Positions 11,953 to 41,990 of a stretch of DNA of 64,000 bases are shown here, in pieces (position 1 is the stretch's first letter; each line of letters begins with the position of its first letter). The translations under genes were made by a program, and so were the position numbers. Below the pieces are notes generated by a model. It made no database searches, had not been told where the DNA came from, and worked only from the letters and a program-made list of their open reading frames with translations. Source of the DNA: an uncultured Candidatus Poseidoniales archaeon (lineage in GTDB: Archaea > Thermoplasmatota > Poseidoniia > Poseidoniales > Thalassarchaeaceae); contig CACJKA010000001.1 in the NCBI GenBank assembly GCA_902593945.1, forward strand, positions 105,905 through 169,904, given 5' to 3'.

Positions 11953-12906
11953 TCAGAGTACTAACTCCCTAGTTTCAGTATTCGGATCCCAACAAGCAAT
12001 ACAGTTACCTGTTCCTATAACTGATTGATAACCATAAATTTCAGCCGGATAACTGGGAACCCCCATAGCGGCCATCATCCAGATTAACCCTCCTGCCTCG
12101 GTCTCAGCAATGGTCTGTTCAGTATATTCGGGCATAATATCAACTACCTCTTGCATCTGACCTTGCCTAAACATATCAATAATTTTCATATCCCAGACAT
12201 ATTGACTATGATTGTATATATGTTCTCGACTCATATCTTCTGGGAGAGGTGCTTCAGTAACAAAATGACGATGACTAAGGCTGTGGCTACTCACTAACAC
12301 TACTTTTTTCCCACTTTTCTCAATAGCCCTCATACAAGCTTCGCCCAATGCCTTAGCTTGCTCAATCATCACTTCATTTGAATAATAATGAGAATTACGA
12401 TTACTTGAAATTGTGACTATAGGTTTATCCCAACTTGGATTCAATAAATGGCATGAGGTTATAGTTCCATAGTCTACTCTAAAATCAGGGTTTCTCATCA
12501 TTTTCGTTATAATTCCTGCTTTAGCGGTTTCTTCGTGCATTGCTTCTGCTAACTCAACATCGACTTTAAGATCATAATTATACCTAAACAAATTAGGAAA
12601 AACTGGATCTACTGATTTGGATTTAAATTCCGGAAGTCCCAAGAAATGTGTCCCAATATATGTTTGCCAATGTGGAGTAAAAATTACAATAGCGTCATAA
12701 TCAATTGTTTTTAATTTTCTTGCAAGTTTTGCATAACCCCAGCGAAGAGTTTCCCAACCTCCCTCGCTAAAGGCCTCATTTTGAGGAGGGTTCTCTGCAT
12801 AAACTAGATGCGGGGGGTGCGGTGCAAGACATCCGAGTACAATTTCGCCTTTCGACATATTGGAGCGGAGACTATCCTTATTGATGAATGAGACGTATTG
12901 GGCCAT
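11953..12906 (-). CDS. Class III extradiol ring-cleavage dioxygenase catalytic subunit (LigB/AmnB-like)
   Basis: LigB-family landmarks are present: N-terminal His cluster LAPHPPHLV, the TPHW motif, HSLSH (catalytic His region) and AETEAGG (Glu ligand region). Confidence 0.75.
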   Translation of the reverse strand: MAQYVSFINKDSLRSNMSKGEIVLGCLAPHPPHLVYAENPPQNEAFSEGGWETLRWGYAKLARKLKTIDYDAIVIFTPHWQTYIGTHFLGLPEFKSKSVDPVFPNLFRYNYDLKVDVELAEAMHEETAKAGIITKMMRNPDFRVDYGTITSCHLLNPSWDKPIVTISSNRNSHYYSNEVMIEQAKALGEACMRAIEKSGKKVVLVSSHSLSHRHFVTEAPLPEDMSREHIYNHSQYVWDMKIIDMFRQGQMQEVVDIMPEYTEQTIAETEAGGLIWMMAAMGVPSYPAEIYGYQSVIGTGNCIACWDPNTETRELVL

Positions 12907-12925
12907 TCAGAGTATTATATGCTAG

Positions 12926-13351
12926 ATGCGCCCCCGACATATCATGAAGTGGGAGTCTGCTCCACTATGGCCTGTGGCAATTCCATCATTGGCAGGATTT
13001 ATTTTAGCATTCATCCCATATCTATTTGAAATAGATTTTTTTACTAAGAAGAACCTTTTATTTCCTGTATTAATTCTGGCTTTTTTGGGATTATCTTGTT
13101 TTATTCTATCAGAAAAATATGGAAATAAAACGGAACTTTACATAGGATATTTTCTAGGATTAATGGTCTTCTACTCATTTAGATTCTTCTTTGGATTTTA
13201 TGGAATTGCAGTAGTTATTCTAACTTGGCTGGGTCAATCAATGTATTTATGGCAGTATAATTTTCCTCCATTTAGAATTGGTATTTGGTTAGCACTGGGC
13301 TCGATGTCTGGATTATACATTGGTGGAATAATGGCATTCAATATATTCTAG
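12926..13351 (+). CDS. Small 4-TM membrane protein, unknown function
   Basis: 141-aa hydrophobic ORF filling the gap between convergent neighbours. No motif recognised. Confidence 0.5.
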   Translation: MRPRHIMKWESAPLWPVAIPSLAGFILAFIPYLFEIDFFTKKNLLFPVLILAFLGLSCFILSEKYGNKTELYIGYFLGLMVFYSFRFFFGFYGIAVVILTWLGQSMYLWQYNFPPFRIGIWLALGSMSGLYIGGIMAFNIF

Positions 13352-14769
13352 AACCTTCTATTGAAAAAGCCTTCAATAACTATTCCTGTTATGATAAATG
13401 CGGGGAAACTAACTAAAAATCCGGTAAAGATTAATTCATCATCGACATAATTAGATACGATTCTTACTTCCCCCAAAGAATCATCCTCTATATTATCTGA
13501 ATTGGATAATCTAACTAATAAAATATGGACATCAAAAAGACTATCCGGAGCAATTGTGAATGTTAATGTACTATTTGCTTCAATTACGGAGAGATTACCA
13601 TTAGAAACAAACTGGTCCCAATAGAAAATACCTTTTTCAGCGTGTTTTTCGACTAAATCTCTCTGAATCATTAGAACTTCGACATCATAATCTCCAACAT
13701 TGTAAACATCTACAATTACAGGATCCCAGAGACTGTGTACTTCAATGGTATCTAAGTTGACATCACCGATGCCAAATCTCATATTCGCCTCATCTTCATC
13801 TGTTCCTGAACCATCAATTACACCAACTGCTAACCAGGTAGAACAAATCAATAGAACTAATATCGAAGATAATACTTGATTTCTATCAGGGAGTAAAGAA
13901 CTCCATCCATTTTCAGTTCTAGCACGTACTACAGGTTGCACGGCGTGAACAAATGAAGATGTGATTATAGCTAAGACAATACCAGGTATTATGTCTACAA
14001 ACCAATGAATACCAAGATATTGTATAGAAAATAGATAAATTATTACGTTAAATTGAATAAAATAATCAAACTCTTTGTGACGCCAATCTTTGAAATCTAT
14101 ACCTAACTTTCGACAATGTAGTCTGTTGATAATTAACAAGCTAATTGGTAATCCTACATGTAAACTTGGTATTGCATTATCCATAGGATCATTATCTGTG
14201 AAAAACGCAAGAGTAAATGAATCGTGATACAGGAGTGCATCCATATCTGAGAGATAGGTAGATGTCACTTCAACATTGAAAAATAGATACAGAGGGACAC
14301 TTAAAATATAGATCACAAAATAATTCAAAGCCGCTTTATCGGCCATTATTTCGTCACGACACAAAATATAGTACATTGGAGAAAACCATATCATGAATAA
14401 ATACATGAATAGATAATGCCCCGATAAGAGATTTGTTAGAGTATCATTAAGGAAAAACTCCTGAATATGATTTGTCCAATCGCCCTCTATTTCATATATC
14501 CAGTGAGTAAATCCTCCAACTCTAGCCTTCATTGGTTCGTTATGATAATCAATTATTGCTTTGTAAATAAACATTAGCAAATATAGAAGAATATGCCACC
14601 AGTAGCCCTTTTCTTTAATTTCTCTTGGCAAATCTACTAATGAAACACGCCTTTCTTTCTCGTCTCTTGTCAAGAAAAAATGTATTGGTAAAGTGAAAAG
14701 TAATAATGCGCCCATGGAAGTGCCATAAGGTCCAATGGGCCAATTCATTAGACTCTCCGCGTACGACAA
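13348..14769 (-). CDS. PAP2-superfamily (sphingomyelin/IPC-synthase-like PAP2_C type) membrane protein with C-terminal extracytoplasmic domain
   Basis: A polytopic N-terminal 300 aa carries IPSLHVGLP and LGIHWFVDIIPG, the C2/C3-like PAP2 motifs. An approx. 150-aa soluble domain and a final TM helix follow. Confidence 0.6.
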   Translation of the reverse strand: MSYAESLMNWPIGPYGTSMGALLLFTLPIHFFLTRDEKERRVSLVDLPREIKEKGYWWHILLYLLMFIYKAIIDYHNEPMKARVGGFTHWIYEIEGDWTNHIQEFFLNDTLTNLLSGHYLFMYLFMIWFSPMYYILCRDEIMADKAALNYFVIYILSVPLYLFFNVEVTSTYLSDMDALLYHDSFTLAFFTDNDPMDNAIPSLHVGLPISLLIINRLHCRKLGIDFKDWRHKEFDYFIQFNVIIYLFSIQYLGIHWFVDIIPGIVLAIITSSFVHAVQPVVRARTENGWSSLLPDRNQVLSSILVLLICSTWLAVGVIDGSGTDEDEANMRFGIGDVNLDTIEVHSLWDPVIVDVYNVGDYDVEVLMIQRDLVEKHAEKGIFYWDQFVSNGNLSVIEANSTLTFTIAPDSLFDVHILLVRLSNSDNIEDDSLGEVRIVSNYVDDELIFTGFLVSFPAFIITGIVIEGFFNRRF

Positions 14770-14829
14770 TGATTCATCAATAATGCGGAAGTGGAAACAA
14801 CTTTTATCCTAATCCTATCATGAATAAAT

Positions 14830-15294
14830 ATGGATGGACATCTGATATGGATGGATGAATGTGCAAAAATCAGTTTTGATGCGAAACCAAGACGATATAA
14901 AGAAGGGACAAGAACATCAGAAGATGCTGCGAGGCAACTTCAATGTGATGTTTCTAATATTGCAAAATCAATTGTATTTGAAGGTCAAGATATGGCAATT
15001 GTTGTAATTACATCAGGATCTAATAGAGTTGATAGAAAGAAGAAACTAAAGAAAATACTCGGGTATAAACCAGGTCAGGCTACACCTGAATATGTTTTGG
15101 AAAGTACTGGGTATGAAGTTGGGGGAGTTCCACCTTTCGGACATCTTAAAGAAACAATAAAAATCATTGATGAAGACTTATTCAAATATGATTTAATTTG
15201 GGGCGCTGGAGGGACTGCAGATACAGTTTTTCCAATTACTCCGGAAGAACTTAAAGAAATTAGTAAGGCAGAGATTAGAGACGTGAAACAGTAG
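14830..15294 (+). CDS. YbaK/ProX-family aminoacyl-tRNA deacylase domain protein
   Basis: KSIVFEG...IVVITSG...GYEVGGVPPFGH pattern typical of YbaK/EbsC editing domains. Confidence 0.8.
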   Translation: MDGHLIWMDECAKISFDAKPRRYKEGTRTSEDAARQLQCDVSNIAKSIVFEGQDMAIVVITSGSNRVDRKKKLKKILGYKPGQATPEYVLESTGYEVGGVPPFGHLKETIKIIDEDLFKYDLIWGAGGTADTVFPITPEELKEISKAEIRDVKQ

Positions 15295-15301
15295 TGATAA
15301 T

Positions 15302-16048
15302 ATGATTACAGATGAGCTTATTATAGCGGCTGAAAATCTAAGAGATAGAGTTGATTCATTAGGTGATTTGTTGGTAAAAAAAGGCCTAGTGGATTATTCA
15401 TATAATCCACTTATGTATGCTTGGGAGCCACATAAAGCATTCATTGAATTAGGAGGTGGAAAAGGGGCAAAAACACTACTTCTAGGCATGAATCCTGGCC
15501 CTCATGGCATGGGACAAATGGGGATTCCATTCTCAGCAACCAGTGTAGTAAGAGATCTATTAGAGATAAAGGGATTAGAAGTTTTACAACCGAAAAATAT
15601 CCATCCTAAAAGACCGGTTACAGGGTTAGATTGGCATAAAGAGGAAGTCTCAGGGACTAGGATATGGAATGTATTAGAAGAATACTATGGAAGTATGGAA
15701 GAAATTTTTTCAAATGTGTTCATCGTTAATCATTGTCCATTAATGCTCTTTAATGGAGAAAGAGGTACTAATATTACTCCGGATAAAATATCAGGAGATG
15801 TAGTAAAAAAATTACTTCAGATATGCGATGAACACTTAGTTCAAGTGGTCAAAATTATGGGAATAAAGAAAGTAGTTGGAGTAGGGAAATATGCTGAAAA
15901 AAGGGCTCTAGGGGCATTAAAGCACTTAGATATTGAAATTACTAGTTGTTGGCACCCCTCTCCAGCGTCCCCATTGGCTAATAGAAATAAGGGCAATGAT
16001 TGGAAAGAAAATATCAAAAATGTTTTACCAAAAAATACTGATTATTAG
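15302..16048 (+). CDS. SMUG1-type (family 3) uracil-DNA glycosylase
   Basis: Motif 1 GMNPGPHGMGQMGIPF and motif 2 CWHPSPASPLANR closely match the SMUG1 signatures (GMNPGP.G / HPSP.NP). Confidence 0.8.
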   Translation: MITDELIIAAENLRDRVDSLGDLLVKKGLVDYSYNPLMYAWEPHKAFIELGGGKGAKTLLLGMNPGPHGMGQMGIPFSATSVVRDLLEIKGLEVLQPKNIHPKRPVTGLDWHKEEVSGTRIWNVLEEYYGSMEEIFSNVFIVNHCPLMLFNGERGTNITPDKISGDVVKKLLQICDEHLVQVVKIMGIKKVVGVGKYAEKRALGALKHLDIEITSCWHPSPASPLANRNKGNDWKENIKNVLPKNTDY

Positions 16049-16109: not shown

Positions 16110-17903
16110 TTGTCAAGTCTCATGTCTGCTATGACAACACCCGAATACCTGATGGCAAATGCGAAGAATTATGGAGAAGAAACAGCGATCTCTACTAAAG
16201 GTTCTAATGGCAATTGGAACAATATTAGTTGGTCAGAATTTCATGACCAAACTGCTTCTGTAGCAAAGTCTCTTATTGCTATGGGTTTCAATGAAGGCGA
16301 TAAATTGAGCATTTACTCTTACAATCGATTAGAGTGGTATACATCTTATCATGCTGCAAATATGTGTAATGGTGCTGCGGTTGGAGTTTACCACACCTGC
16401 TCTCCTGAAGAAGTCGAATGGGTTGTAGGAAATTCAGATTCAAAAGTTGTGTTTGTTGGAGATAATCCAATGGACGGAGGTAACAAAGAAAAAATGTGCG
16501 CTTACAGATTACATGAAATAATGGATAAATTAGACAAGGTAGAAACTGTAGTAGTAATGGATGGAGTAGATATGCCTGAACACTCCAAGTGTATGTCTTG
16601 GTCGGATTTTATTCAGAAAGGAGTAGATGTAGATTACTCTGAAATCGAAAAAAGAGTTTCGAGCATTACACCAGAAGACACATTTTCATTGATTTATACA
16701 TCAGGTACGACCGGAAATCCAAAAGGAGTGGAATTGAGTCATGATAATATTGATTTCGAACTTGCTGAAGTCTGGAAATTACAAGAATTCGAAAGAGGAT
16801 GGGGCTATGTTTCTTGGTTACCATGTGCTCACGTCTTCGGTCAACTGGTAGATTGTCACGCACACATTAGATGGGGACTTCATATGACTGTTGTAGATGC
16901 ACCATTGAATGTAATTGATGTCGCCAAAGAAGTACAACCTCACCTATTCATTGGAGTACCTAGAATTTATGAAAAAGTGTACAGCAATCTAGTTGCAAAA
17001 CTTGGAGGGAAAATAAAATTAGCTAAAGTTCCAATTCTAGGTGGAATTATCAAGAATAAAGCAAAACAAGCAATAGGGATGTCTAATTGTGTCTATGCAA
17101 TTACAGGCGCTGCACCAATAAATCCAGATATTCTAAAGTTATTCCATACACTTGACATACCATTGTATGAAGGATATGGAATGACTGAAACGACTGCGGG
17201 AGCAAGTTTAGGTTACAAGAAAAATCACAAATTTGGTACAGTTGGTAAACCATTCAGTGGCACTGAGTTAATGATTTCTGATTCGGGAGAGATTCTATTC
17301 AGAGGAAGACATATCATGAAAGGATATTACAAAAATCCTGAGGCTACCGCTCAAACTATAGATTCTGATGGATGGTTGCATTCCGGAGACAAAGGAGAAA
17401 TTGACTCTGATGGATATGTAAAAATCACTGGAAGAATAAAAGAATTGTATGTGAGTTCTGGTGGGAAAAATATTGCACCCCTTGTAATTGAAGAAACTAT
17501 GAAGTCTATTCCAATGGTTTCTCAATGTATGCTAATTGGAGATGGAAGAAAATACTGTAGTGCTTTATTCACATTGGATGTAGGTGCAATTCTAAGAGAT
17601 AAACATGGAATGGACCCAGCAAAAATACCAAAAGATCCCGCTGTTCAAATCACAACATTGGAAAGTTTCGGCAAGAGTCTCTCAGATTATACGGATAATG
17701 AAGAGATTCATGCGGAGATGCAAGCACAAGTTACAGAACTGAATGGACAATTCAGTAATCCTGAACAAATAAAGAAATTTAAGATACTGCCAAGAGATCT
17801 TAGTGTTGACTTTGGTGAATTAACTCCAACCCTCAAAATTAGAAGAATTCAAATTAGAGAAAATTGGGCTGCTGAAATAGAAGCAATGTATGAAGGCGCT
17901 TAA
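16110..17903 (+). CDS. Long-chain-fatty-acid--CoA ligase (ANL adenylate-forming superfamily)
   Basis: AMP-binding signature IYTSGTTGNPKGVELSH, plus YEGYGMTET, GDKGEIDSDGYVKITGRIKE and GKNIAP. Confidence 0.9.
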   Translation: MSSLMSAMTTPEYLMANAKNYGEETAISTKGSNGNWNNISWSEFHDQTASVAKSLIAMGFNEGDKLSIYSYNRLEWYTSYHAANMCNGAAVGVYHTCSPEEVEWVVGNSDSKVVFVGDNPMDGGNKEKMCAYRLHEIMDKLDKVETVVVMDGVDMPEHSKCMSWSDFIQKGVDVDYSEIEKRVSSITPEDTFSLIYTSGTTGNPKGVELSHDNIDFELAEVWKLQEFERGWGYVSWLPCAHVFGQLVDCHAHIRWGLHMTVVDAPLNVIDVAKEVQPHLFIGVPRIYEKVYSNLVAKLGGKIKLAKVPILGGIIKNKAKQAIGMSNCVYAITGAAPINPDILKLFHTLDIPLYEGYGMTETTAGASLGYKKNHKFGTVGKPFSGTELMISDSGEILFRGRHIMKGYYKNPEATAQTIDSDGWLHSGDKGEIDSDGYVKITGRIKELYVSSGGKNIAPLVIEETMKSIPMVSQCMLIGDGRKYCSALFTLDVGAILRDKHGMDPAKIPKDPAVQITTLESFGKSLSDYTDNEEIHAEMQAQVTELNGQFSNPEQIKKFKILPRDLSVDFGELTPTLKIRRIQIRENWAAEIEAMYEGA

Positions 17904-18546: not shown

Positions 18547-19395
18547 TCAGACTTCCCAAAATAAGAAACTAAGGAAAATCATTGAGAAGCAAAATGAGAA
18601 GGGGGCTATGATAATTCCACCTAATAGTCCGAAACCCAGTGATTTCTTCTTAGTGACAAAACTCCAGATAATCATTGCAATATAAGCAATCGGAATAAGA
18701 AATGGGATGAATGATAATAAAATAGACGATGCTGACATGTCTTCGTCACCATCTACAGAAATATAGTCTATTTGAGAATCAAAATTTGTCGCATAGGTCA
18801 TTGTCTGGCCATTCTTTTGGAAATAAAAGTCATAATTTTCTAGTGAGCCGTAACAATTCATGGGATACCAAAATTCTCCCTCTTCTGATTGAACATAGGA
18901 ATAAAAACCGTCCTCGATTTCCCACCAACAACCTCCATAATTTTCCCAATTTTCTTGATCATAAAAATCAACTGATGTGTAAAAATAAAAATCTTTATCA
19001 TCAATTTCTTCCAAACTAAATGATGGGATGTCAAAATATAACTCAGCAGTATTAAAATCTTCATTATTTATTGTAACCAACCCATCAAAATTTGGTTCAT
19101 TTATACCCTCATAATACCAAGTATCTTCATTTGCTAGTTCAGATGATAAAAATATGAAAGCCATTAGAAAACTGGCAATTATAGGGATCAAAATTAATCC
19201 GACAAGAAATTGAGAAACTAGGAATTTATTAGGATCTTTTATCTGAGGCATGTTGACTGATTGAGGAGTAGAAAAACTGCTCACATCACCAGAAAAAACA
19301 TTCTTTGGTGCATCGATAGAAGTTTGAGGGAATTGCTCTTTTTTGGGCCCCCACCATGGGTCTTCACTATCTGTCATGTTTGAAAGTTCCTCCAA
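18547..19395 (-). CDS. Membrane protein with Asp/Glu/Tyr/Phe/Trp-rich extracytoplasmic domain, unknown function
   Basis: 282-aa ORF with one TM after a polar N-terminus. An approx. 150-aa acidic-aromatic domain (WYYEGINEPNFDG...FYFYTSVDFYDQENWENYGGCWWEIEDGFY) follows, then C-terminal TM helices. Its start abuts the stop of the upstream zinc-ribbon gene with zero gap. Confidence 0.5.
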   Translation of the reverse strand: MEELSNMTDSEDPWWGPKKEQFPQTSIDAPKNVFSGDVSSFSTPQSVNMPQIKDPNKFLVSQFLVGLILIPIIASFLMAFIFLSSELANEDTWYYEGINEPNFDGLVTINNEDFNTAELYFDIPSFSLEEIDDKDFYFYTSVDFYDQENWENYGGCWWEIEDGFYSYVQSEEGEFWYPMNCYGSLENYDFYFQKNGQTMTYATNFDSQIDYISVDGDEDMSASSILLSFIPFLIPIAYIAMIIWSFVTKKKSLGFGLLGGIIIAPFSFCFSMIFLSFLFWEV

Positions 19396-19857
19396 TTATA
19401 ACAAAACATACGGCAGATGGAAAAGTAAATCAAAAACGACTGCGAGAGCTTTGGCCTCTGATTTAGGATTTCCTTGACTCTCTTTATTTGGAGGAGAAAG
19501 TCTCTGTAGTTCGCCGGAATCAAACCAAAATGATGAACATTTAGGACAACCATCAATCTCAATTAATTCTGTTAAAGAGCCATCAATTTTCCTGAAGGCG
19601 AAATCTCGAACTTTCATCCCACTCTGGCAAAAAGGACAACAAATTTCAGTTGGAGTGCCTTCGTCTTCGAAGCCAACATGTAGTGATTTCAATTTTTTAC
19701 TACAAATCTCTGATGATGCAGACTGAGAATTTAGAGCTAATCCAGCACAAGATGGACAGTGAAATATTCCATTACGAGAAAATACTGATTTCTCACTTTC
19801 ATCGGGAGAAACAAGAGGAGTACCATCTCTGGGGCATAACATATTGTCTATCACCAA
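19396..19857 (-). CDS. Twin zinc-ribbon protein (two zf-TFIIB/PF13453-like C-x2-C...C-x2-C...W.D.GEL modules) with hydrophobic C-terminal tail
   Basis: Module 1 is MLCPRDGTPL...FHCPSCAGLAL. Module 2 is CCPFCQSGM...IDGCPKCSSFWFDSGELQRL. The protein ends in LAVVFDLLFHLPYVLL. The start may be the internal MLCPRDG at 19842. Confidence 0.7.
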   Translation of the reverse strand: MVIDNMLCPRDGTPLVSPDESEKSVFSRNGIFHCPSCAGLALNSQSASSEICSKKLKSLHVGFEDEGTPTEICCPFCQSGMKVRDFAFRKIDGSLTELIEIDGCPKCSSFWFDSGELQRLSPPNKESQGNPKSEAKALAVVFDLLFHLPYVLL

Positions 19858-21658
19858 AATAGCCGAACAGATTATTCCTATTGAATACTTACCCGGATTT
19901 CTTATGTTTTATTCCGTTTGCAGTGTTTATATGTGGTCAAAGAATTATTTCGATATGGTCGGCTATTGTAATTGGTGTAAAGGAGAAATTAGAACAGAGT
20001 GGAAATTGTGTTCTGGATGTCGATTGTTATCTCCGGAATTTATTGGGATGGATATAACTCCATTTTTATCGGAGGAACGAAATAAAGAAACTAACGAAAT
20101 TCTGGCACCTGCTAGAGGATTAACTAATTATCAAAGAATTAAACATCTAACTCAAGATGTAGATTTAGGAATATCATTACCTTCGATTCTTAGATCTAAA
20201 AGAAAGGGCGGATTAAACAGTATAAACTACGACCCGAAAGAGTGGGAGAAAATTACAAATTATTGGGAACGCTTTGAGCAGATTAGGCCTGGGAATTATT
20301 TTTTCCCAGATGGTTCAAGACTATCCATTAGCGGAAATTGTGTATTCCACATTAACGGACAGATATTAAATGGAAATATACCAATTTTAGATATAGCAGA
20401 ATGGCTTTCAAATCCATTACGTTCAGAATCCATAAGGTATTGGGATGACCTGATATTATTATTGGACTGTACACTGACTAAACTTCCAATTTTATTCAGA
20501 GATGAAGAAAGTTGGGCAAAATGGGTAAATGATAATTCTTGGAGGGGGATTGATTACCCCTGGAAAATAGGAAGAGGGGCGTCACACTTAACGGCGAGAG
20601 TACCTCCATTCTTGTTGTACATATATGAAAAATATAAATCAAGATATTTTGATGAAGATGGGGAGATAGTAAACATGTCAATACCTGAAGTAATTAGAGA
20701 AAATTTAGATGATTTAAAATTAAAAAAATATGGCGTATTGGGCGAGAATTGGGCAAACATATTCGAGAATGATAACCTTCCAAAAGAATATAGGAAAAAG
20801 ACCGTTCCTATCTTGATAGTAAGTAATCATAGATTCAAATTATTTACCATTAAAGATGAAAAACCCGCAATATTTTCAGTTGGAAATGACCCTAGAGATT
20901 GGAGAATATTGCTGACCTGGGCACTTCAACCAAATGGAGAAAGAGGGAGTGAATTAATTCAAGGTTTACTAATGAATTGGCACAAAGAAGAAAGCATTTG
21001 GCAACCAAGTAAAAGACAAATTATTTCTGCAAGATTATTACATGATGAGATTGTGAAATTGGAGGATTTTTCATCATTGTCGCCACTTGAATATGATGAA
21101 TCAACTCCTGGTCTTTTCGTTAAAGGAACTTCAGGATTTTACTATGTTATTTCACCCACTTCAGAAATGAAGCTCAAAGTTGATGCTATACCCGGACCTT
21201 TTGACATATGCAGAGCATATACAATTGGGATTGATTTATGCATAGATCCAATAATAATGGATGATATACCATTTGGAGACGTTGCAGTAAGTTATTTACT
21301 TGCACTTCATAATGATGAAGATTCTAGGAGATATATTTTCACATTAGATCTATTTTTGAACTCTTTAGAGAAAACGGATAGAAAACTGGATGATGACACT
21401 TTTTGGGAAACTGTGGAAAGTAATTATGAGAAATTATTAGAAGAAATACAAACACCTTGGCCCTTCGATGATGATGAAATAGAAGCTGAGATAGAACAAT
21501 TTGAAAGAGAACAACTTGCAATTAATCTTAATGAAGAATATGAATATGATAAAGAGATGGAAAGAATGATGGAGGAAGAAAGAGATAGATTAGAAGAACA
21601 ACTAGAAGAAGAATTCCAAGATTTTTGTAGAAATATGGCATTAAAGGGAGATGATTAA
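19844..21658 (+). CDS. Large uncharacterised protein, paralog 1: N-terminal zinc ribbon, approx. 450-aa unknown core, C-terminal acidic coiled coil
   Basis: Zinc ribbon CNWCKGEIRTEWKLCSGC. The core shares conserved blocks with the next ORF. The tail is EEIQTPWPFDDDEIEAEIEQFEREQL...EEERDRLEEQLEEEF. By analogy with paralog 2, the probable true start is MVGYCNWC at 19955. Confidence 0.7.
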   Translation: MSITKIAEQIIPIEYLPGFLMFYSVCSVYMWSKNYFDMVGYCNWCKGEIRTEWKLCSGCRLLSPEFIGMDITPFLSEERNKETNEILAPARGLTNYQRIKHLTQDVDLGISLPSILRSKRKGGLNSINYDPKEWEKITNYWERFEQIRPGNYFFPDGSRLSISGNCVFHINGQILNGNIPILDIAEWLSNPLRSESIRYWDDLILLLDCTLTKLPILFRDEESWAKWVNDNSWRGIDYPWKIGRGASHLTARVPPFLLYIYEKYKSRYFDEDGEIVNMSIPEVIRENLDDLKLKKYGVLGENWANIFENDNLPKEYRKKTVPILIVSNHRFKLFTIKDEKPAIFSVGNDPRDWRILLTWALQPNGERGSELIQGLLMNWHKEESIWQPSKRQIISARLLHDEIVKLEDFSSLSPLEYDESTPGLFVKGTSGFYYVISPTSEMKLKVDAIPGPFDICRAYTIGIDLCIDPIIMDDIPFGDVAVSYLLALHNDEDSRRYIFTLDLFLNSLEKTDRKLDDDTFWETVESNYEKLLEEIQTPWPFDDDEIEAEIEQFEREQLAINLNEEYEYDKEMERMMEEERDRLEEQLEEEFQDFCRNMALKGDD

Positions 21659-23309
21659 TTTGCATAAATGTTTAGGATGTGGGGCTGAAGTTGTTATTAA
21701 AGATTGGAAAGATCGAAATTGGTGCGATATTTGTGAAATCTTAATTCCAGAAATAACGGAATACTCATTGTTATCGATACCAAATAAGAATAATGCAGAG
21801 AAACTCGGGAATATCCTTAGAAAACCATCATCGAAAATTAACAATGTCTGGAAATCATTCAATAATATTGATAGGAGAGAGAAAAGTTGGTTCATTTTAG
21901 AAAATAAACAAGTTTGTAAAAGAAAACTATTTGATTGGAACGAAAATGAGAATAACATCTCTACAATATTTTCTGAGGATGACAAGGAATTATTTACTTC
22001 AGGTGATCAAAGTAAAGGAAATTTGGAGACTCTGAGAAGATTACAAAGAGGGGGAATCTTACCTGACGGAAGTCATATCTCATGGATTTCCGGGAAATTC
22101 TTTCTTGATGGTGAAGTGGTTAACTTACCATACATCGACCTGAGAGAAATATTAGAAAAATCTACTGATTATAATAAATATAATTGGAAACTAATATTAT
22201 ATCTAATATCACTAGCTACAGAAAACACACCTGTATTTGATAAAAAAAAAGGATTTCCACGCTTTCTTAGGCGAAGACCAAGACTTAATACGAAATACAT
22301 TTGTAAGCACCCTGTAAACAACTTAGAAACAAGAGAAAATAAAAGGCTCTATGATTCAATAAAAGAAATTACATCATTAGATTTGCATGAAGATATGAGA
22401 TATTGGATTAATAGTTGGAATAGAGTTTTGTCAGATAAATCTAGAATATACCCTAAAAGACATGAAATTCCAATATCTTTAATCATTGACAAAGGGAGAC
22501 TAATGTTAAGGGTGAGGAGAAACGATAAATGGAGAAAAATTAGGGTCCCTAGAAATCTAGACATTTGGTCAATTCTGATAAATTGGTGTCTTATGTTACC
22601 AGGCGGTGAGGGGAGAAATCATCTTGAATCTCTGCAATATTACTTATTCTGTGATTCAGAAATGGAGATTATAACAAAAACAGAAAGAAATGGCATAGAA
22701 TTTCTTAGAGGAATTATAGACAATTCAAATGGTAAAGCTTCTGTTGAGGGAAAAAAGATAGTGGTTGAAGGGCAATATGGTGTCAAATATAGCATATCAC
22801 CAGGTTTCGGCCCTCATGGTTCTAGATTCAAAGTATTTACAGATATAGTTACTGATAAAGACAATATTCAGGAAGAAATGTTCAGGAGACTGAATAGAAG
22901 ACTACGTGGACTTGGAGGGGCAAATACGAAACAGAAAGAGCTGTGTATAGTTGAAGAACCACATTTACGAAAATTAGTCATTGGAGATGCAATTGGGAGT
23001 ATCGTTATGGCTTTGCTTAATGATGATAAATCAAGAAAGAAAATAGATACCCTAGATAAGCATCTTTCTCAATTTGATTCTGAAGGAGAAGTAAATAATA
23101 GAGAAATAATTGACCAAAATAATCGCCAAGAAATTGATCAAATATTACAGAGAATTGAATATGAAGAAGAACAGATTGCTAGAATACAAGAAAGAATCCC
23201 GGGAGATTTCAATGAAAGAAGAATAGTCGTAGTAAGGAATCAGTTGGAAGTGTTACAAGAGAGATTCAGGTATCTTCAGCGAGTTTTAGACGATAGGGGC
23301 CGAGTCTAG
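21651..23309 (+). CDS. Large uncharacterised protein, paralog 2: N-terminal zinc ribbon, unknown core, C-terminal coiled coil
   Basis: Zinc ribbon CLGCGAEVVIKDWKDRNWCDIC at residues 7-28. It overlaps paralog 1 by 8 bp. Shared blocks with paralog 1: LPDGSHISWISGKFF / FPDGSRLSISGNCVF, DIWSILINWCLMLPGGEGRNHLESL / DWRILLTWALQPNGERGSELIQGL, and LCIVEEP...IGDAIGSIVMALLNDDKSRKKI / LCIDPII...FGDVAVSYLLALHNDEDSRRYI. Confidence 0.7.
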   Translation: MINLHKCLGCGAEVVIKDWKDRNWCDICEILIPEITEYSLLSIPNKNNAEKLGNILRKPSSKINNVWKSFNNIDRREKSWFILENKQVCKRKLFDWNENENNISTIFSEDDKELFTSGDQSKGNLETLRRLQRGGILPDGSHISWISGKFFLDGEVVNLPYIDLREILEKSTDYNKYNWKLILYLISLATENTPVFDKKKGFPRFLRRRPRLNTKYICKHPVNNLETRENKRLYDSIKEITSLDLHEDMRYWINSWNRVLSDKSRIYPKRHEIPISLIIDKGRLMLRVRRNDKWRKIRVPRNLDIWSILINWCLMLPGGEGRNHLESLQYYLFCDSEMEIITKTERNGIEFLRGIIDNSNGKASVEGKKIVVEGQYGVKYSISPGFGPHGSRFKVFTDIVTDKDNIQEEMFRRLNRRLRGLGGANTKQKELCIVEEPHLRKLVIGDAIGSIVMALLNDDKSRKKIDTLDKHLSQFDSEGEVNNREIIDQNNRQEIDQILQRIEYEEEQIARIQERIPGDFNERRIVVVRNQLEVLQERFRYLQRVLDDRGRV

Positions 23310-24387
23310 AGAATATGGTCTTAGTACCCTTAACTGGATTCTTCTTATGTAGTTCCTGGATATCTTTATTATCAAAGTCCAAAAATATCATTGAGTCGAC
23401 TAATGATAATAGAGCTGCAATTTGGGAGTCTCGGTTCCTGAATTTACCGTCCATTGCGTTTGATGAGAAATCATCTACTGGCTCACCATTTAATGATAAT
23501 ATTGTAATTGCTTTGTTAATTATCTCTCTGACTTTTGTATAATCAATATATGATGCCAGATGATCTCTGAAGGTGTTAAGATGGAATAATAATTCATTTC
23601 TCCTGAGCTCAATGTGCGAATGTTCATCTAAATAAGAACTATTTACAGGTATATTATAATCATTAGAAATTAATTGTCGAGATATGAACTTGATTTCTTT
23701 AGAGACGTCATCTCTGTGAATATTCCACTTCTCTTGTATCTGAAGAACAGGGTTAGGATATAATTTACGATTTAGTAATATCAAAGAAGCAACAGCGAAT
23801 ACCCGAATTTTATATTCAGACTTTTGAATACGAGTAGTTAATATCTTACAACCTTTCAATGTATCACGATTTGTAGAAAGCTTATTGTTTGTGTTTGAAA
23901 CATTCAGAACTTCTTCTAGAACGCTTAGTGTTCGTCCTCTAACTCCAGCATTTTCTGCCTCAATTACAATTTTCTCCACATAACTAAGTTTTTCCTGAGA
24001 CATTCTGTTCTGAAGGAAATAAAGCCTTCTAGATAAAGAAGAACCGTCCCTAGTTATTTGACTCCCCAAACGTGACAATGTATTATTTCTTCTTCTAATC
24101 TGTACTTCACTGGGGTGAGTATATCCTGTATCGTATCCAAGTTGAATTAGGGGCAAACCACAAGCAACACAATGGCTATATGAATCGCCTTCTTCTGTGA
24201 TTTGTCCACCACATCCACCACATCTTTCTTCGTTATTTCTACTATTTTCTGCTCTATTTGAATTACACATTTTCCGTACCTCTATTGCCCGTGGGAGAAC
24301 TATTACCCGTCCCAAATAGGTACTACTCATAGCCGGACTTTGGTGGTAGCATCGGGGGTGTTTAAGCATTGTGTAAGTATGTCGCAA
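23266..24387 (-). CDS. Divergent TFIIB/TFB-like protein (zinc ribbon + B-linker-like segment + degenerate cyclin-fold region)
   Basis: Ribbon CGGCGGQITEEGDSYSHCVACGLPL. LGSQITRDGSSLSRRLYFLQNRM resembles the TFB linker (...D..G..L....R..RLRKWQ.R). KIRVFAVASLILLNRKLYPNPVLQIQEKWNIHRDDVSKEIKFISRQL resembles a cyclin-repeat helix set. The start is uncertain (M1 24387, M20 24330, M40 24270). The 3' end overlaps the convergent paralog-2 gene by 44 bp. Confidence 0.55.
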   Translation of the reverse strand: MRHTYTMLKHPRCYHQSPAMSSTYLGRVIVLPRAIEVRKMCNSNRAENSRNNEERCGGCGGQITEEGDSYSHCVACGLPLIQLGYDTGYTHPSEVQIRRRNNTLSRLGSQITRDGSSLSRRLYFLQNRMSQEKLSYVEKIVIEAENAGVRGRTLSVLEEVLNVSNTNNKLSTNRDTLKGCKILTTRIQKSEYKIRVFAVASLILLNRKLYPNPVLQIQEKWNIHRDDVSKEIKFISRQLISNDYNIPVNSSYLDEHSHIELRRNELLFHLNTFRDHLASYIDYTKVREIINKAITILSLNGEPVDDFSSNAMDGKFRNRDSQIAALLSLVDSMIFLDFDNKDIQELHKKNPVKGTKTIFSRLGPYRLKLAEDT

Positions 24388-24448
24388 AAACCATGTCTTT
24401 ACAGAGGTTTATGGTGAAATCCAAAACGTGAATTGTTAATTTGCACAT

Positions 24449-24685
24449 CTAACAATTTTCTTCTCGCCAGCTAAAAAGATTGAATATCCCTTCTGCCATT
24501 TCCCTCATAGTAATATGATCTTCATTACTCTCTAAAGCTAACTTAACAAGAGTTTTTAGTTCCTCATCTATATTCTCTGAAATTAATGTTTCAATTATCA
24601 ATTCAACGTCTATTGCATGACCTTGTGATTTAGACAATAATTCATTGAGCTTCTCTAAAGACTCTCGATAATCTATTGCCATCAA
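24449..24685 (-). CDS. 78-aa acidic all-helical protein, unknown function, translationally coupled to the E1-JAMM gene
   Basis: Its ATG overlaps the stop of the upstream gene (ATGA, 4-bp overlap at 24682..24685). Helical heptad-like sequence. The single Cys is the C-terminal residue (..WREENC). Confidence 0.55.
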   Translation of the reverse strand: MMAIDYRESLEKLNELLSKSQGHAIDVELIIETLISENIDEELKTLVKLALESNEDHITMREMAEGIFNLFSWREENC

Positions 24686-25881
24686 ATAACCTCCGAATAG
24701 TCATAATTTATGATTGGCTCATCAGTCCAAATGCTCAAACGACCTGATTCAGACAACTTATCTATAGAATTATCATTAATCTTGATTGTCTTTTTGTAAT
24801 GATCATGGCCGAGAACAATTGCTTTATCGAGAATATCTGAATATATTGAAATTGTTTCTTTATCGGTTGATGACCAGTATGCATCTCTTGGATGAGTATG
24901 TATCCATAATTTGTATGGAATTTCAGAACCCACTGGAGGAGCTAATTCTACACGGCCAGATGTCCCTATATCAACCCAAATTGAAGAATTATTATCATAG
25001 AGAATACTTACCTCCTTGCCTAAATCATCAGCAAGGCCCCATAGAGATGGCCAATCCTTTTTCTCGGCTAAACCTGCTAAAGTTTCTTTGATTATTATGG
25101 AATGATGATTCCCATTTGAAACCTCCCTCATTACATCTGAATCTGAGTGTATCATTGGAATAATTACTCCACCCACTGCATCTAAATCTGATTCTTCTGA
25201 AGATTGAGCTAATCTTGTTGCAGTTCCAAAACTTATGCTAGATACCTGGGGAAATGGCCTCTGAGCTATATCATCTCCAGATTGAATCCTTAACGATTGT
25301 ATCAACCATTGTGCACCATGAGATGCTGCGACCATAAAACCAAATTGTATATTGCCTGAATCAATAGCACCTTCGAACTGGCAAGATTGTGAATCTTGTT
25401 CCGGAGTGAATTCCGAAATTAAATCCGACTTAACTGAGTCATCCAATGCGATGTAGCCATCACCTAAGCATCTCAAATCCAACCAATTTTCGTAATTCTC
25501 ATGCACTACTCTTCGCGCTTGATGGGAATCTACTGCAACTACTACAATATCACATGGAAGTAAATCGCTACTAGATCTAATATCCCAGGGGCAGGGTTGT
25601 AATATTAAATTAGGTCCTTCATTTATTGATTTATCACTTTCATTCCAAAGTCTATTGCACAAAGTAGTTACTTTTAACCCACCTACATCAGAAATATTGA
25701 AATTCTGATGAGGGAGATTTTTTTTCTCTACAATGTCTGAATCATAGATACAAATTCTAATGTCGCCTATGTTATCCACTAAATCTCCTTGCTGTAATGT
25801 AGGATATACCATCGAAACTAAATTTGAGCCTATGCCTCCTGCACCGATTATTGCTATTACTAATTCTTCATCAATATTCAT
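24682..25881 (-). CDS. Fusion protein: N-terminal E1-like (ThiF/MoeB/UBA-type) adenylation domain + C-terminal JAMM/MPN+ metallopeptidase domain
   Basis: Residues 9-20 are IAIIGAGGIGSN (Rossmann GxGGxG). Residues 46-61 are YDSDIVEKKNLPHQNF (E1 D.D.V...NL.RQ signature). Residues 111-119 are DIVVVAVDS (Mg/ATP Asp). Residues 326-340 are WIHTHPRDAYWSSTD (JAMM HxH-x6-S-x2-D). There are no MoeB-type CxxC pairs and no rhodanese domain. Confidence 0.8.
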   Translation of the reverse strand: MNIDEELVIAIIGAGGIGSNLVSMVYPTLQQGDLVDNIGDIRICIYDSDIVEKKNLPHQNFNISDVGGLKVTTLCNRLWNESDKSINEGPNLILQPCPWDIRSSSDLLPCDIVVVAVDSHQARRVVHENYENWLDLRCLGDGYIALDDSVKSDLISEFTPEQDSQSCQFEGAIDSGNIQFGFMVAASHGAQWLIQSLRIQSGDDIAQRPFPQVSSISFGTATRLAQSSEESDLDAVGGVIIPMIHSDSDVMREVSNGNHHSIIIKETLAGLAEKKDWPSLWGLADDLGKEVSILYDNNSSIWVDIGTSGRVELAPPVGSEIPYKLWIHTHPRDAYWSSTDKETISIYSDILDKAIVLGHDHYKKTIKINDNSIDKLSESGRLSIWTDEPIINYDYSEVI

Positions 25882-25944
25882 ATTATCACTCTCATTTCTT
25901 GGCTTTGCACCAAGATGGTAGTCATTATCCTAAACTACTAAGAT

Positions 25945-25966
25945 AATAAATGATTAATCATTTATT
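25945..25966. repeat. Perfect 22-bp palindrome AATAAATGATTAATCATTTATT followed on the plus strand by a T-run, in the gap between the Ubl and E1-JAMM genes
   Basis: Read directly: the sequence equals its own reverse complement. It is flanked by T6 (25967..25972), which reads as an A-run preceding the hairpin on the coding (minus) strand. Confidence 0.7.
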
Positions 25967-25997
25967 TTTTTTGAAAATCCGTCTTTGAAAAATTTTC

Positions 25998-26228
25998 CTA
26001 AAATCCACCTGTCAGACCTGGCATAATTCGGATTGTTCCAACATCAGCCCAATTAGCACCAGCAATATCTGTAGCTTGTACCATCTGATTGTCTTTGTAA
26101 ATCCAAGATCCCTGATTCATTTCGATAAGATCCAATGTCTCTTGCTTCGTAAGTGAAAGGGATGAATGCCCAGTACTATCGGCGATTTCTACATTTGTTC
26201 TGATATCATCCATTAACTGTTCCTCCAT
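25998..26228 (-). CDS. ThiS/MoaD/SAMP-like ubiquitin-like (beta-grasp) small protein ending in Gly-Gly-Phe
   Basis: 76-aa ORF. The C-terminus ...DVGTIRIMPGLTGGF was verified codon by codon (ggt gga ttt tag on the minus strand). The pattern matches ThiS/MoaD tails (..GDEV.FFPPVTGG) plus one extra residue. Confidence 0.7.
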   Translation of the reverse strand: MEEQLMDDIRTNVEIADSTGHSSLSLTKQETLDLIEMNQGSWIYKDNQMVQATDIAGANWADVGTIRIMPGLTGGF

Positions 26229-26368
26229 TTTTTTCTTTTCTTCTACTAGTTTCCCTATTTTAAGTCCGGGCGCAGACTATAGGAGATTCATCTCAAGAGT
26301 ATATTAACTAAACAAATTAATCTTATTTAGATTTGAAAATACATACGTAGATAACTGGATGAAATGAC

Positions 26369-26929
26369 GTGGTAATGATCAGAATGGAAGTGGATAGGGG
26401 GATGACCTTAGATGAAGCTTACAGAAATACAGTTGATGGACTTAGGGAATTGGGATGGAAAGATCTAGCTCTAGACTCAAAGAGGAAAGGAATTAATGCC
26501 CGTTTTGAGGGGGATAACGATATTTGGGAACTACTAATTCATTTCTATAAAGAAGGAAATTATCGTATTAGTTCTAGGTCCACTTGGAAAGTACAAAACA
26601 ATACTTCTGATTTAGTTCAACACTTAGTTGAGAAGATTAATCGCGGCAACCATAAACATGATTTTAGAATGAATGATAATGGTTCTTTTGAGGTTAAAAC
26701 TTCAGCAAATATCTTAGAAAGGTATCATTTCTTTGAGGGAATGAAGAAAGTAATGATTAGCAATATCCAAGCATATGAGTCATATACCAGTATGTTGAAG
26801 AGATTTGTAAATATAACGCCTGAATATTTAGATATGGAAACAGAAGGATTTAGGGCTTTGATAAGTAGTAAAAATCCACCATCGACTATACAAGATGAAG
26901 AATTAATTCGCTTGAATTTACAAAAGTAG
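26369..26929 (+). CDS. Hypothetical cytoplasmic protein (186 aa, Cys-free), divergently transcribed from the Ubl gene
   Basis: ORF with mixed alpha/beta character and no motif recognised. It contains no cysteine, so it cannot be a thioester-forming E2. Confidence 0.5.
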   Translation: MVMIRMEVDRGMTLDEAYRNTVDGLRELGWKDLALDSKRKGINARFEGDNDIWELLIHFYKEGNYRISSRSTWKVQNNTSDLVQHLVEKINRGNHKHDFRMNDNGSFEVKTSANILERYHFFEGMKKVMISNIQAYESYTSMLKRFVNITPEYLDMETEGFRALISSKNPPSTIQDEELIRLNLQK

Positions 26930-41915: not shown

Positions 41916-41990
41916 TGGTGCGCCCGCCGGGATTTGAACCCGGGACATGAGGTTGGAAACCTCAGGTGATAACCCCTTCACTACAGGCGC
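41916..41990 (-). tRNA. tRNA-Gly (anticodon UCC), CCA encoded
   Basis: Minus-strand read: GCGCCTG TA GTGA AGGGGTTA TCAC C TGAGG TTTCCAA CCTCA TGTC CCGGG TTCAAAT CCCGG CGGGCGC A CCA. Complete 75-nt cloverleaf. Confidence 0.9.

Follow-up and report, generated by a model that had tools for sequence, protein, structure and literature searches.

The closest described relatives of the locus reported here are bacterial. In BilABCD, a bacterial ISG15-like system that comes in types I and II, the genes run in the order Ubl (ubiquitin-like protein), E2 (conjugating enzyme), deubiquitinase and E1 (activating enzyme). BilC pre-processes a Ubl that ends in glycine plus a tail in type II Bil, and BilD combines an inactive and an active adenylation domain with an inserted CYS domain (PMC10557695). 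E1s that lack a rhodanese domain and are linked to JAB peptidases have been predicted to conjugate proteins (Iyer et al. 2006, PMC1779556). A study of the archaeon Haloferax describes the sampylation and turnover of TBP2, a basal transcription factor (PMC4895103). In this report, we examined positions 18547 to 26929 of a 64,000-nucleotide stretch, hereafter “the window”, from an uncultured Candidatus Poseidoniales archaeon of Marine Group II (MGII; assembly GCA_902593945.1, contig CACJKA010000001.1, positions 105,905 to 169,904 of the forward strand). We conclude with moderate confidence that this block encodes a Bil-like conjugation pathway (Ubl, E2, JAB and E1) that is tied to a dedicated factor of the TFB family. 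Its nine open reading frames (ORFs), A to I, and the signature domains of C and D are these:

18547-19395, minus strand: A, a 282-aa membrane protein
19396-19857, minus strand: B, a 153-aa twin zinc-ribbon protein
19955-21658 (listed ORF from 19844), plus strand: C, a 567-aa paralog of D
20990-21376, plus strand: signature domain of C, with the Cys429 codon at 21239-21241
21651-23309, plus strand: D, 552 aa, assigned to a new family together with C
22656-23084, plus strand: signature domain of D, with the codon of the invariant Cys432 at 22944-22946
23266-24270 (ORF extends to 24387), minus strand: E, a predicted divergent TFB/TFIIB-family protein, 334 aa from Met40
24449-24685, minus strand: F, a 78-aa helical protein
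24682-25881, minus strand: G, a 399-aa fusion of E1 and JAMM domains (E1::JAMM)
25998-26228, minus strand: H, a predicted 76-aa ubiquitin-like modifier precursor
26369-26929, plus strand: I, a 186-aa Cys-free protein, divergent from the Ubl gene

All nine ORFs were confirmed at these coordinates and on these strands. An initial annotation, made from the letters alone, had also described the overlaps and most of the domains, and both descriptions proved sound: B carries zinc ribbons, G carries ThiF and JAMM domains, H is a Ubl, C and D are paralogs and I is free of cysteine. Its view of E as TFB-like agrees with fold and profile comparisons, though the Pfam TFIIB model finds nothing in this protein.

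Motif and profile place H among the ubiquitin-type Ubls, with a conserved glycine near its C-terminus and a tail after it. It ends in PGLTGGF, such that Gly74-Gly75 (codons 26004-26009) are followed by one further residue, Phe76. The sequence PGL[VT]GG is invariant in 19 orthologs (P70, G71, G74 and G75 are fixed), and what comes after the two glycines is one or two variable residues, a longer tail (27 aa in L023 and L025; L-numbers denote the loci that we retrieved) or a fusion. Two loci contain single ORFs that encode Ubl-Ubl-E1 in tandem (L022:9449-10723 and L024:1305-2546), and each Ubl in them ends in GG. Such a product would resemble a polyubiquitin precursor, and JAMM processing would be needed for release of the Ubl. 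The H profile matched di-ubiquitin in the Protein Data Bank (PDB) with an E-value of 4e-3 and single ubiquitin only at about 1; the very low values obtained with polyubiquitin are inflated by repeat summation. The alignment spans the C-terminal half, up to the LRLRGG of ubiquitin. Pfam returned no ThiS/MoaD match for H.

The E1 domain of G occupies approximately 25192-25881 and the JAMM metallopeptidase domain approximately 24682-25074. In Pfam, G matches ThiF (3.9e-9) and no other domain, rhodanese included. The E1::JAMM family has 234 database relatives. In 12 of them, with identities as low as 45%, the E1 elements GxGGxG, C138 and S166-C167-Q168 are invariant, as are the JAMM residues E290, H328-x-H330, S337 and D340 (the codons of the HxH...S..D motif lie at 24862-24900). 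The metal motif of the JAMM domain is complete and the domain active-looking, and Cys167 is a candidate thioester site. Profile matches of the E1 part in the PDB include MccB, UBA6, UBA3, Uba4 and Cap2; the JAMM motif gave weak matches to AMSH-LP and Rpn11-like proteins. NCBIfam PRTRC_ThiF (TIGR03736) scored 47.2 bits against a cutoff of 144.75, and there is no ParB-like neighbour at the block, which sets the locus apart from PRTRC systems.

C and D both carry a CxxC...CxxC zinc ribbon near the N-terminus and, towards the C-terminus, a signature domain. Between the two lies a PDGS-containing middle region, and the chain ends in a coiled-coil tail, which is acidic in C. The signature motif is ...G.SG..Y.I.P...[LI]CI...GD....LAL.ND....I.TL, and G374, C432, D446 and D458 (D numbering) are the sole invariant residues across 37 cellular and viral C/D-like proteins. 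Neither C nor D has a match in Pfam, NCBIfam, PHROGs or PADLOC, and PADLOC is also blank for the C/D-like proteins of other loci. Sequence-profile searches of the PDB with the whole proteins and with the C-terminal domain produced zinc-ribbon noise only. An AlphaFold2 (AF2) model of D (pLDDT 76) retrieved nothing significant from the PDB with Foldseek; its best fold match in BFVD is an unnamed 452-aa viral protein (E-value 6e-5, probability 1.0). We assign C/D to a new protein family of 400-720 aa that carries a zinc ribbon and in which a UBC fold could not be demonstrated. Pfam DUF7737, a family that our literature search found named in no paper, weakly matches 11 of the 37 C/D-like proteins, C and D of the window not among them. 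Seven of the matching proteins were rescanned. All are phage-type, and the matches, which fall in their C-terminal part, cover profile positions 5-62 at 13-19 bits against a threshold of 27. A relationship of the C/D C-terminal domain to DUF7737 may thus be taken as a lead only.

E resembles archaeal TFB and eukaryotic TFIIB in having a zinc ribbon and two cyclin-like domains, but differs from them in its very fast evolution and in the absence of any match to Pfam TFIIB (PF00382) or Zn_Ribbon_TF (PF08271) at E-values up to 0.1. The ribbon cysteines C17, C20, C34 and C37 are conserved among homologs, strands are modelled at residues 25-43, and a Pfam-confirmed TFB matches the ribbon region of E orthologs in tblastn. 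Foldseek searches with the AF2 model of E (pLDDT 80.5) placed TFIIB from RNA polymerase II preinitiation complexes at the top (7o4i_M, probability 1.00; 7egb_R, 0.99; 5oqj_M, 0.99), followed by Brf (8iue_V) and then cyclins. The TFIIB alignments extend over approximately 320 columns with TM scores of 0.34-0.47, and their E-values are only 1e-3 and above. When the E family was aligned by hhalign to a TFB profile built from one Pfam-confirmed TFB (from L021) and four viral TFB-like proteins, the probability was 94% and the E-value 9e-8 over 173 columns, which comprise the ribbon, the linker and the first repeat. A PDB sequence-profile search with E yielded zinc-ribbon noise only, and Pfam-level similarity to TFB was noted in none of the 38 family representatives at 50% clustering. 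Because the curated Pfam TFIIB models are unmatched, we file E, by model and profile, as a very divergent TFB-family paralog with a ribbon and two cyclin-like domains, and not as a canonical TFB.

The small protein F is found downstream of E1::JAMM in all type-1 loci, and its 4-nt overlap with G points to translational coupling of the two. D40, A50, W73 and R74 are invariant in F, and the WR motif is conserved. We considered whether F could be a miniature E2 with a C-terminal cysteine; this notion was rejected because the terminal cysteine varies among orthologs.

These genes stay together. E1::JAMM was found in 19 genomic loci of Poseidoniales type, metagenome-assembled genomes (MAGs) named Thalassarchaeaceae included. 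Long contigs have the arrangement I / H G F E / D C / B (A), bounded by icmF on one side and by LysE on the other; the fibrillarin, Fpg, MIP, AMP-binding and UDG genes of the wider neighbourhood are conserved as well. C through I occur together in MGII relatives whose E1::JAMM identity to that of the window ranges from 80% to 45%, and all seven are intact and show constraint in L005, L013 and L072. In L072, other genes (NDK among them) make up the left flank; B, A and LysE are missing there, and C-I are all present in order. Three Thalassarchaeaceae-named contigs (L012, L016 and L017) hold parts of the block only.

The same families also associate in other arrangements. In L021, a 7.5-kb contig from a Poseidoniales bin, the order is a partial C/D-like gene, a TFB (Pfam TFIIB 1.3e-25), an AAA ATPase, a C/D-like gene, Ubl, a short C/D-like gene, E1 and JAMM. 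L023 and L025 contain FtsZ, a T7-type RNA polymerase, one or two C/D-like genes, Ubl, E1 and JAMM, whereas L024 has C/D-like, Ubl-Ubl-E1, JAMM and F-like genes, the last of these following JAMM (hidden-Markov-model E-value 1.3e-5). In L020, a further C/D-domain gene stands between Ubl and E1. L021, L023 and L025, like viral loci, encode E1 and JAMM separately; the Pfam family Prok-JAB matches the split JAMM orthologs. In short MGII-binned contigs, the split E1 and JAMM are closer to the viral versions than those of the window are. The position that corresponds to E is taken by a genuine TFB in L021 and by a viral TFB in viral loci.

To survey viruses, we retrieved 43 IMG/VR loci by E1 peptide motifs and searched them with hidden Markov models of the cellular families. 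This Ubl is present in 27 of the 43, and 25 have a protein with the C/D signature domain beside E1 on the same strand (24 upstream, one downstream); in other words, the C/D-domain gene adjoins E1 in every viral locus that has one. Ubl, C/D domain and E1 occur together in 21 loci, a JAMM of the window's clade in 14, and a TFB between the C/D-like gene and E1 in at least 10. The order in L036 is Ubl (...IVGGHY), a 92-aa ORF, a C/D-like gene (492 aa), TFB, E1, two small ORFs, JAMM, a GroES-like gene and a chaperonin gene, flanked by helicase, ATP-dependent ligase and clamp-loader genes; L048 has RNR, ligase and RFC genes. This content fits the magrovirus replication module (PMC5434244). A phage-like group, exemplified by L057, carries DnaB, PolA, RecA and RNA ligase genes and the order Ubl, C/D-like (approximately 700 aa), Prok-JAB and ThiF. 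Viruses of MGII hosts appear to carry their own set of Ubl, C/D-like, TFB, E1 and JAMM genes.

C-I are co-conserved in relatives, even where the left flank has been replaced, and the recurrence of the set in rearranged and viral contigs bears out the proposal of an undescribed system around the Ubl, E1::JAMM, the zinc-ribbon paralogs and the TFB-like protein. The larger claim, of nine genes that function together, stands for C-H, with I joining them in cellular loci, and is not supported for A and B.

The likeness to Bil and to the operons of Iyer, Burroughs and Aravind 2006 (classes 6a-6e) is extensive: in all, the Ubl ends in glycine plus a removable tail, the E1 lacks a rhodanese domain, a JAB/JAMM peptidase is fused or adjacent, and a fourth conserved protein occupies the E2 slot. 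The phage-type relatives of the cassette run exactly Ubl-X-JAB-E1, as Bil does. In contrast to these systems, the window's is archaeal and archaeal-virus-like, its E1 is fused N-terminally to JAMM, its E2-slot protein is of a new family, a TFB-family gene is present, and the core locus is fixed and belongs to no PADLOC family. Like SAMP/UbaA/HvJAMM1 of Haloferax, it comprises an archaeal Ubl, an E1 and a JAMM protease without a canonical E2 or E3. It departs from that system in its ubiquitin-like (rather than ThiS/MoaD-like) Ubl, its E1-JAMM fusion, its lack of a sulfur-transfer context and its dedicated C/D and TFB-like partners; the architectures are not homologous. The Haloferax system supplies a precedent for the tagging of a basal transcription factor, TBP2, by a Ubl. 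Type II CBASS Cap2/Cap3 also pairs E1-type adenylation with a JAB peptidase, but the window locus has no E2-E1 fusion and has a separate Ubl, and no Pfam, NCBIfam or PADLOC match among the nine ORFs points to a CD-NTase.

The combination of genes appears to be undescribed. In the searchable literature, we found no study that connects Poseidoniales or magroviruses with Ubl, ThiF, JAB or TFB, a single remark about viral ThiF excepted; the magrovirus papers that we consulted mention neither ubiquitin, ThiF, JAB nor TFIIB. The remark is in the RaFAH study, which lists ThiF/MoeB genes among the most prevalent auxiliary metabolic genes (AMGs) of archaeal viruses and suggests a link to ubiquitination (PMC8276007). 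The passage in question mentions the ThiF gene alone. Those ThiF AMGs are probably the viral E1 genes of the cassette described here.

From the domain identities, conserved motifs and gene co-occurrence that we observed, we infer the chemical steps, the E2-like role of C/D and the targets as follows. H would be made as a GG-X precursor, or in some relatives as a Ubl-Ubl-E1 polyprotein, and the JAMM domain of G would trim it to expose the Gly-Gly. The E1 domain would then adenylate the Ubl C-terminus and probably form a thioester on Cys167. From there the Ubl could pass to the signature-domain cysteine that is invariant in C/D (Cys429 of C and Cys432 of D). C/D would be an E2 or ligase-like component, the ribbons, variable middles and coiled-coil tails of which may choose targets, and JAMM might be able to reverse the conjugation. 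C/D most likely transfers or directs the Ubl, because it sits in the E2 position, has a single invariant cysteine and is an obligate partner. The TFB paralog E would link the pathway to transcription initiation, either as a tagging target or partner or as the driver of a dedicated regulon; transcription initiation is the process likely to be served, since a TFB-family gene recurs (E, L021 and the viral loci noted above). An RNA polymerase gene is also near the cassette in L023 and L025. The viral sets would probably take over or protect transcription. A bolder version holds that archaea and their viruses have Ubl conjugation hard-wired to the initiation of transcription, that C/D constitutes a new class of Ubl-transferring enzyme without a UBC fold, that the substrates are basal transcription proteins such as TFB, TBP or RNA polymerase subunits, and that host and virus sets contest promoter usage during infection. 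We offer it as speculation that we ourselves find rather doubtful.

Several observations weigh against a Bil-like pathway with C/D as its transfer component. Pfam UQ_con does not match C or D. Foldseek matches of the D model to E2s are weak (Pex4, probability 0.04; a Catovirus E2, 0.23). In hhalign, C/D aligned with four E2 sequences such that the C/D cysteine fell on the catalytic cysteine (P 0.016); a control with shuffled E2 columns reached the C/D-E2 score in 1 of 200 trials, and unrelated alignments score equally. For that last reason we do not claim homology of C/D to E2s; the two proteins might rather be tagging targets, adaptors or enzymes of an unrelated kind. Cys167 is likewise no more than a putative thioester site. 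Profile models of known defence and Ubl systems matched nothing outside the Rossmann region of the E1. The E1 part of G (approximately 230 aa) is, like the stand-alone E1s (184-223 aa), a single short adenylation domain and not the inactive-plus-active pair with a CYS insert that is seen in BilD. In L022, Ubl-Ubl-E1 and JAMM are present and a C/D neighbour was not detected; it is the sole such locus. Finally, the evidence for viral status is indirect, consisting of the IMG/VR classification and genes of a replication module; the flanks that were examined showed no capsid gene.

The locus might instead serve antiviral defence in the manner of BilABCD or type II CBASS, with the host Ubl tagging virus proteins and the viral homologs acting as counter-defence or decoys. 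The component set and order match Bil, homologous cassettes are found in viral contigs, and the rates of divergence are suggestive. Between the window and L005, identity is 79% for icmF, 64% for AMP-binding and UDG, and 59% for LysE and B; it falls to 46% for the Ubl (H), 45% for G, 37% for F and 26-30% for C, D, I and E (26% for E), and A was not found in L005. C, D, E and I thus diverge much faster than their neighbours. Against these points, the locus is fixed in housekeeping synteny in every related MGII locus examined; the sampling covered 21 genomic loci. Its GC content at third codon positions (GC3; 0.25-0.34 in block genes, 0.24-0.28 in the flanks) is native, and a TFB partner is without precedent in Bil or CBASS. 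Because the locus is fixed and its composition native, the block is not a variable defence island, and this reading, together with that of recent horizontal transfer, was rejected; the initial annotation had raised defence-island behaviour as a possibility. Nor did the thought of a known defence family survive: PADLOC yields only weak Cap2 matches to G, of 10-18 bits, in residues 6-126 (the Rossmann region). We consider defence possible but unlikely. A role in conflict, with host and virus each having their own version, is conceivable.

Other readings fare worse. The block could be what is left of an old viral or mobile-element module, domesticated or in decay and without an integrated cellular function, given that the same gene set exists in virus-like contigs, that the split E1 and JAMM of the short MGII-binned contigs have viral affinities, and that the block's total GC (0.346) is the minimum among 8.4-kb windows. 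That low GC is, however, attributable to codon positions 1 and 2, i.e., to amino-acid composition, and GC3 equals that of the flanks. Seven intact and constrained ORFs and invariant catalytic motifs also speak for a working system, and no integrase, att-like tRNA or structural genes were found at the block; we regard decay as quite improbable. It is very improbable that Ubl, E1 and JAMM form a sulfur carrier like CysO/Mec+ or QbsE/QbsC/QbsD, of which the latter is an example of a Ubl, E1 and JAB sulfur-carrier trio, in which JAMM would expose the GG, E1 would adenylate it and a thiocarboxylate would donate sulfur, the remaining genes being unrelated. Trios of this kind with a GG-plus-tail precursor do occur in siderophore and cysteine pathways (PMC1779556), and no E2 is proven at this locus. 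Yet the rhodanese domain and sulfur-metabolism neighbours are absent (the neighbours being LysE, IcmF and similar), the Ubl resembles ubiquitin and is blank for ThiS/MoaD, and in viruses the trio travels with C/D-like and TFB genes. The least probable account for the nine genes as a whole is that they are unrelated lineage-specific core genes, adjacent only through conserved MGII synteny. The housekeeping flanks are indeed as syntenic as the block, but the families re-associate in other orders and contexts (L021, L023-L025, L072, and viral and phage contigs). For C-H this account is contradicted; for A and B it is the best one.

If the Bil-like pathway tied to a TFB-family factor is real, it would be an archaeal counterpart of the bacterial Bil ubiquitination systems and a new case of Ubl machinery that is physically tied to the basal transcription apparatus. 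The pathway appears to exist also in viruses that infect these hosts and in large phages, and the “ThiF AMGs” of archaeal viruses would then belong to a complete tagging pathway. The question bears on how a Ubl is transferred without an E2 or by a non-UBC enzyme, and on the origins of ubiquitin signalling in prokaryotes. The set is compact, with four to six genes, and could be tested in E. coli; its hosts, the MGII, are among the ocean's most abundant archaeal groups.

The remaining genes of the block are more peripheral. A has no family match in Pfam, PADLOC, NCBIfam or PHROGs. L005/L015 and L072 lack it and L001 has a truncated copy, and it is a mere neighbour that does not belong to the system. 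B matches Pfam PF13453 (Zn_ribbon_TFIIB, 1.4e-9) and is conserved beside LysE; neither L072 nor any rearranged or viral locus has it. Its membership in the system is not supported. I has no cysteine and no family match. It adjoins the Ubl gene in all type-1 loci, L072 with its changed left flank included, and was not detected in rearranged or viral loci; it is a possible accessory of the cellular loci only. Scans of the nine ORFs against PADLOC, PHROGs and NCBIfam gave weak E1 matches only. The left flank is a LysE exporter gene, according to the Pfam families recorded for its orthologs, and the right flank is probably an IcmF-type mutase gene, judging by the recorded combination of B12-binding, MeaB and MM_CoA_mutase. 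None of the nine ORFs matches an integrase or transposase family, and the sole tRNA in the window is a tRNA-Gly at 41916-41990, some distance away at 41.9 kb; the initial decision not to call the block a mobile element is supported.

Some observations concern individual contigs. In L001 (GCA_038143615.1, the closest long genome), C falls into two ORFs of 501 and 77 aa and the UDG gene into two of 96 and 146 aa, and A is either truncated or split; the disrupted stretches are 14200-15993, 16493-17328 and 19841-20571. These splits represent either real pseudogenisation or assembly errors. Full MGII-type cassettes are found in L013 and L020, which were deposited as Verrucomicrobia bacterium and Acidimicrobiaceae bacterium, and the relative P0039 has a “Longimicrobiales” protein name. 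Bacterial MAG names on such cassettes are probably binning errors. The T7-type single-subunit RNA polymerase of L023 (1774-5622) and L025 (249-4115) is approximately 1,285 aa long (Pfam RNA_pol 1.4e-46), and its gene lies between the FtsZ gene and the C/D-like-Ubl-E1-JAMM cassette in bins labelled Poseidoniales/Methanobacteriota. A phage-type polymerase is unexpected in an MGII context, and these two contigs may be viral or element-derived. In L036, the GroES-like gene and a 503-aa chaperonin gene directly follow the viral JAMM (12105-13873, read by eye), which matches prior reports of chaperonin-encoding marine archaeal viruses. The phage-like set comprises L054-L058, L061, L064, L065, L033, L034 and L042, several of which are approximately 130-200 kb (for the cassette see, e.g., L057:6873-10492). 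Their 700-aa C/D-like proteins show the weak similarity to DUF7737; tblastn searches of GenBank phage records with G and with the C/D-like proteins of L036 and L057 found no match.

Finally, several details of layout and expression merit mention. C and D overlap by 8 bp (21651-21658). The zero-nucleotide gap between A and B that was noted initially exists in the listed ORFs; it stems from a TTG-extended ORF, and relatives have approximately 60 nt there. The convergent 3' ends of D and E overlap by 44 bp (23266-23309). This overlap is kept in the closer relatives L001-L004 and absent in L005; because it is kept in the former, convergent transcription across it could couple the two operons. The true start of E is probably Met40, at coordinate 24270, according to homolog alignments. 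That of C is probably the ATG at 19955, since homologs begin where Met38 falls. A TATA-like TTTATAT lies at 19927-19933, only 22 nt upstream of this likely start, which suggests a leaderless C mRNA. On the other side of the block, TTAAAATA is located approximately 29 nt upstream of the ATG of the Ubl gene (H), inside the 140-bp divergent intergenic region between H and I (26229-26368).

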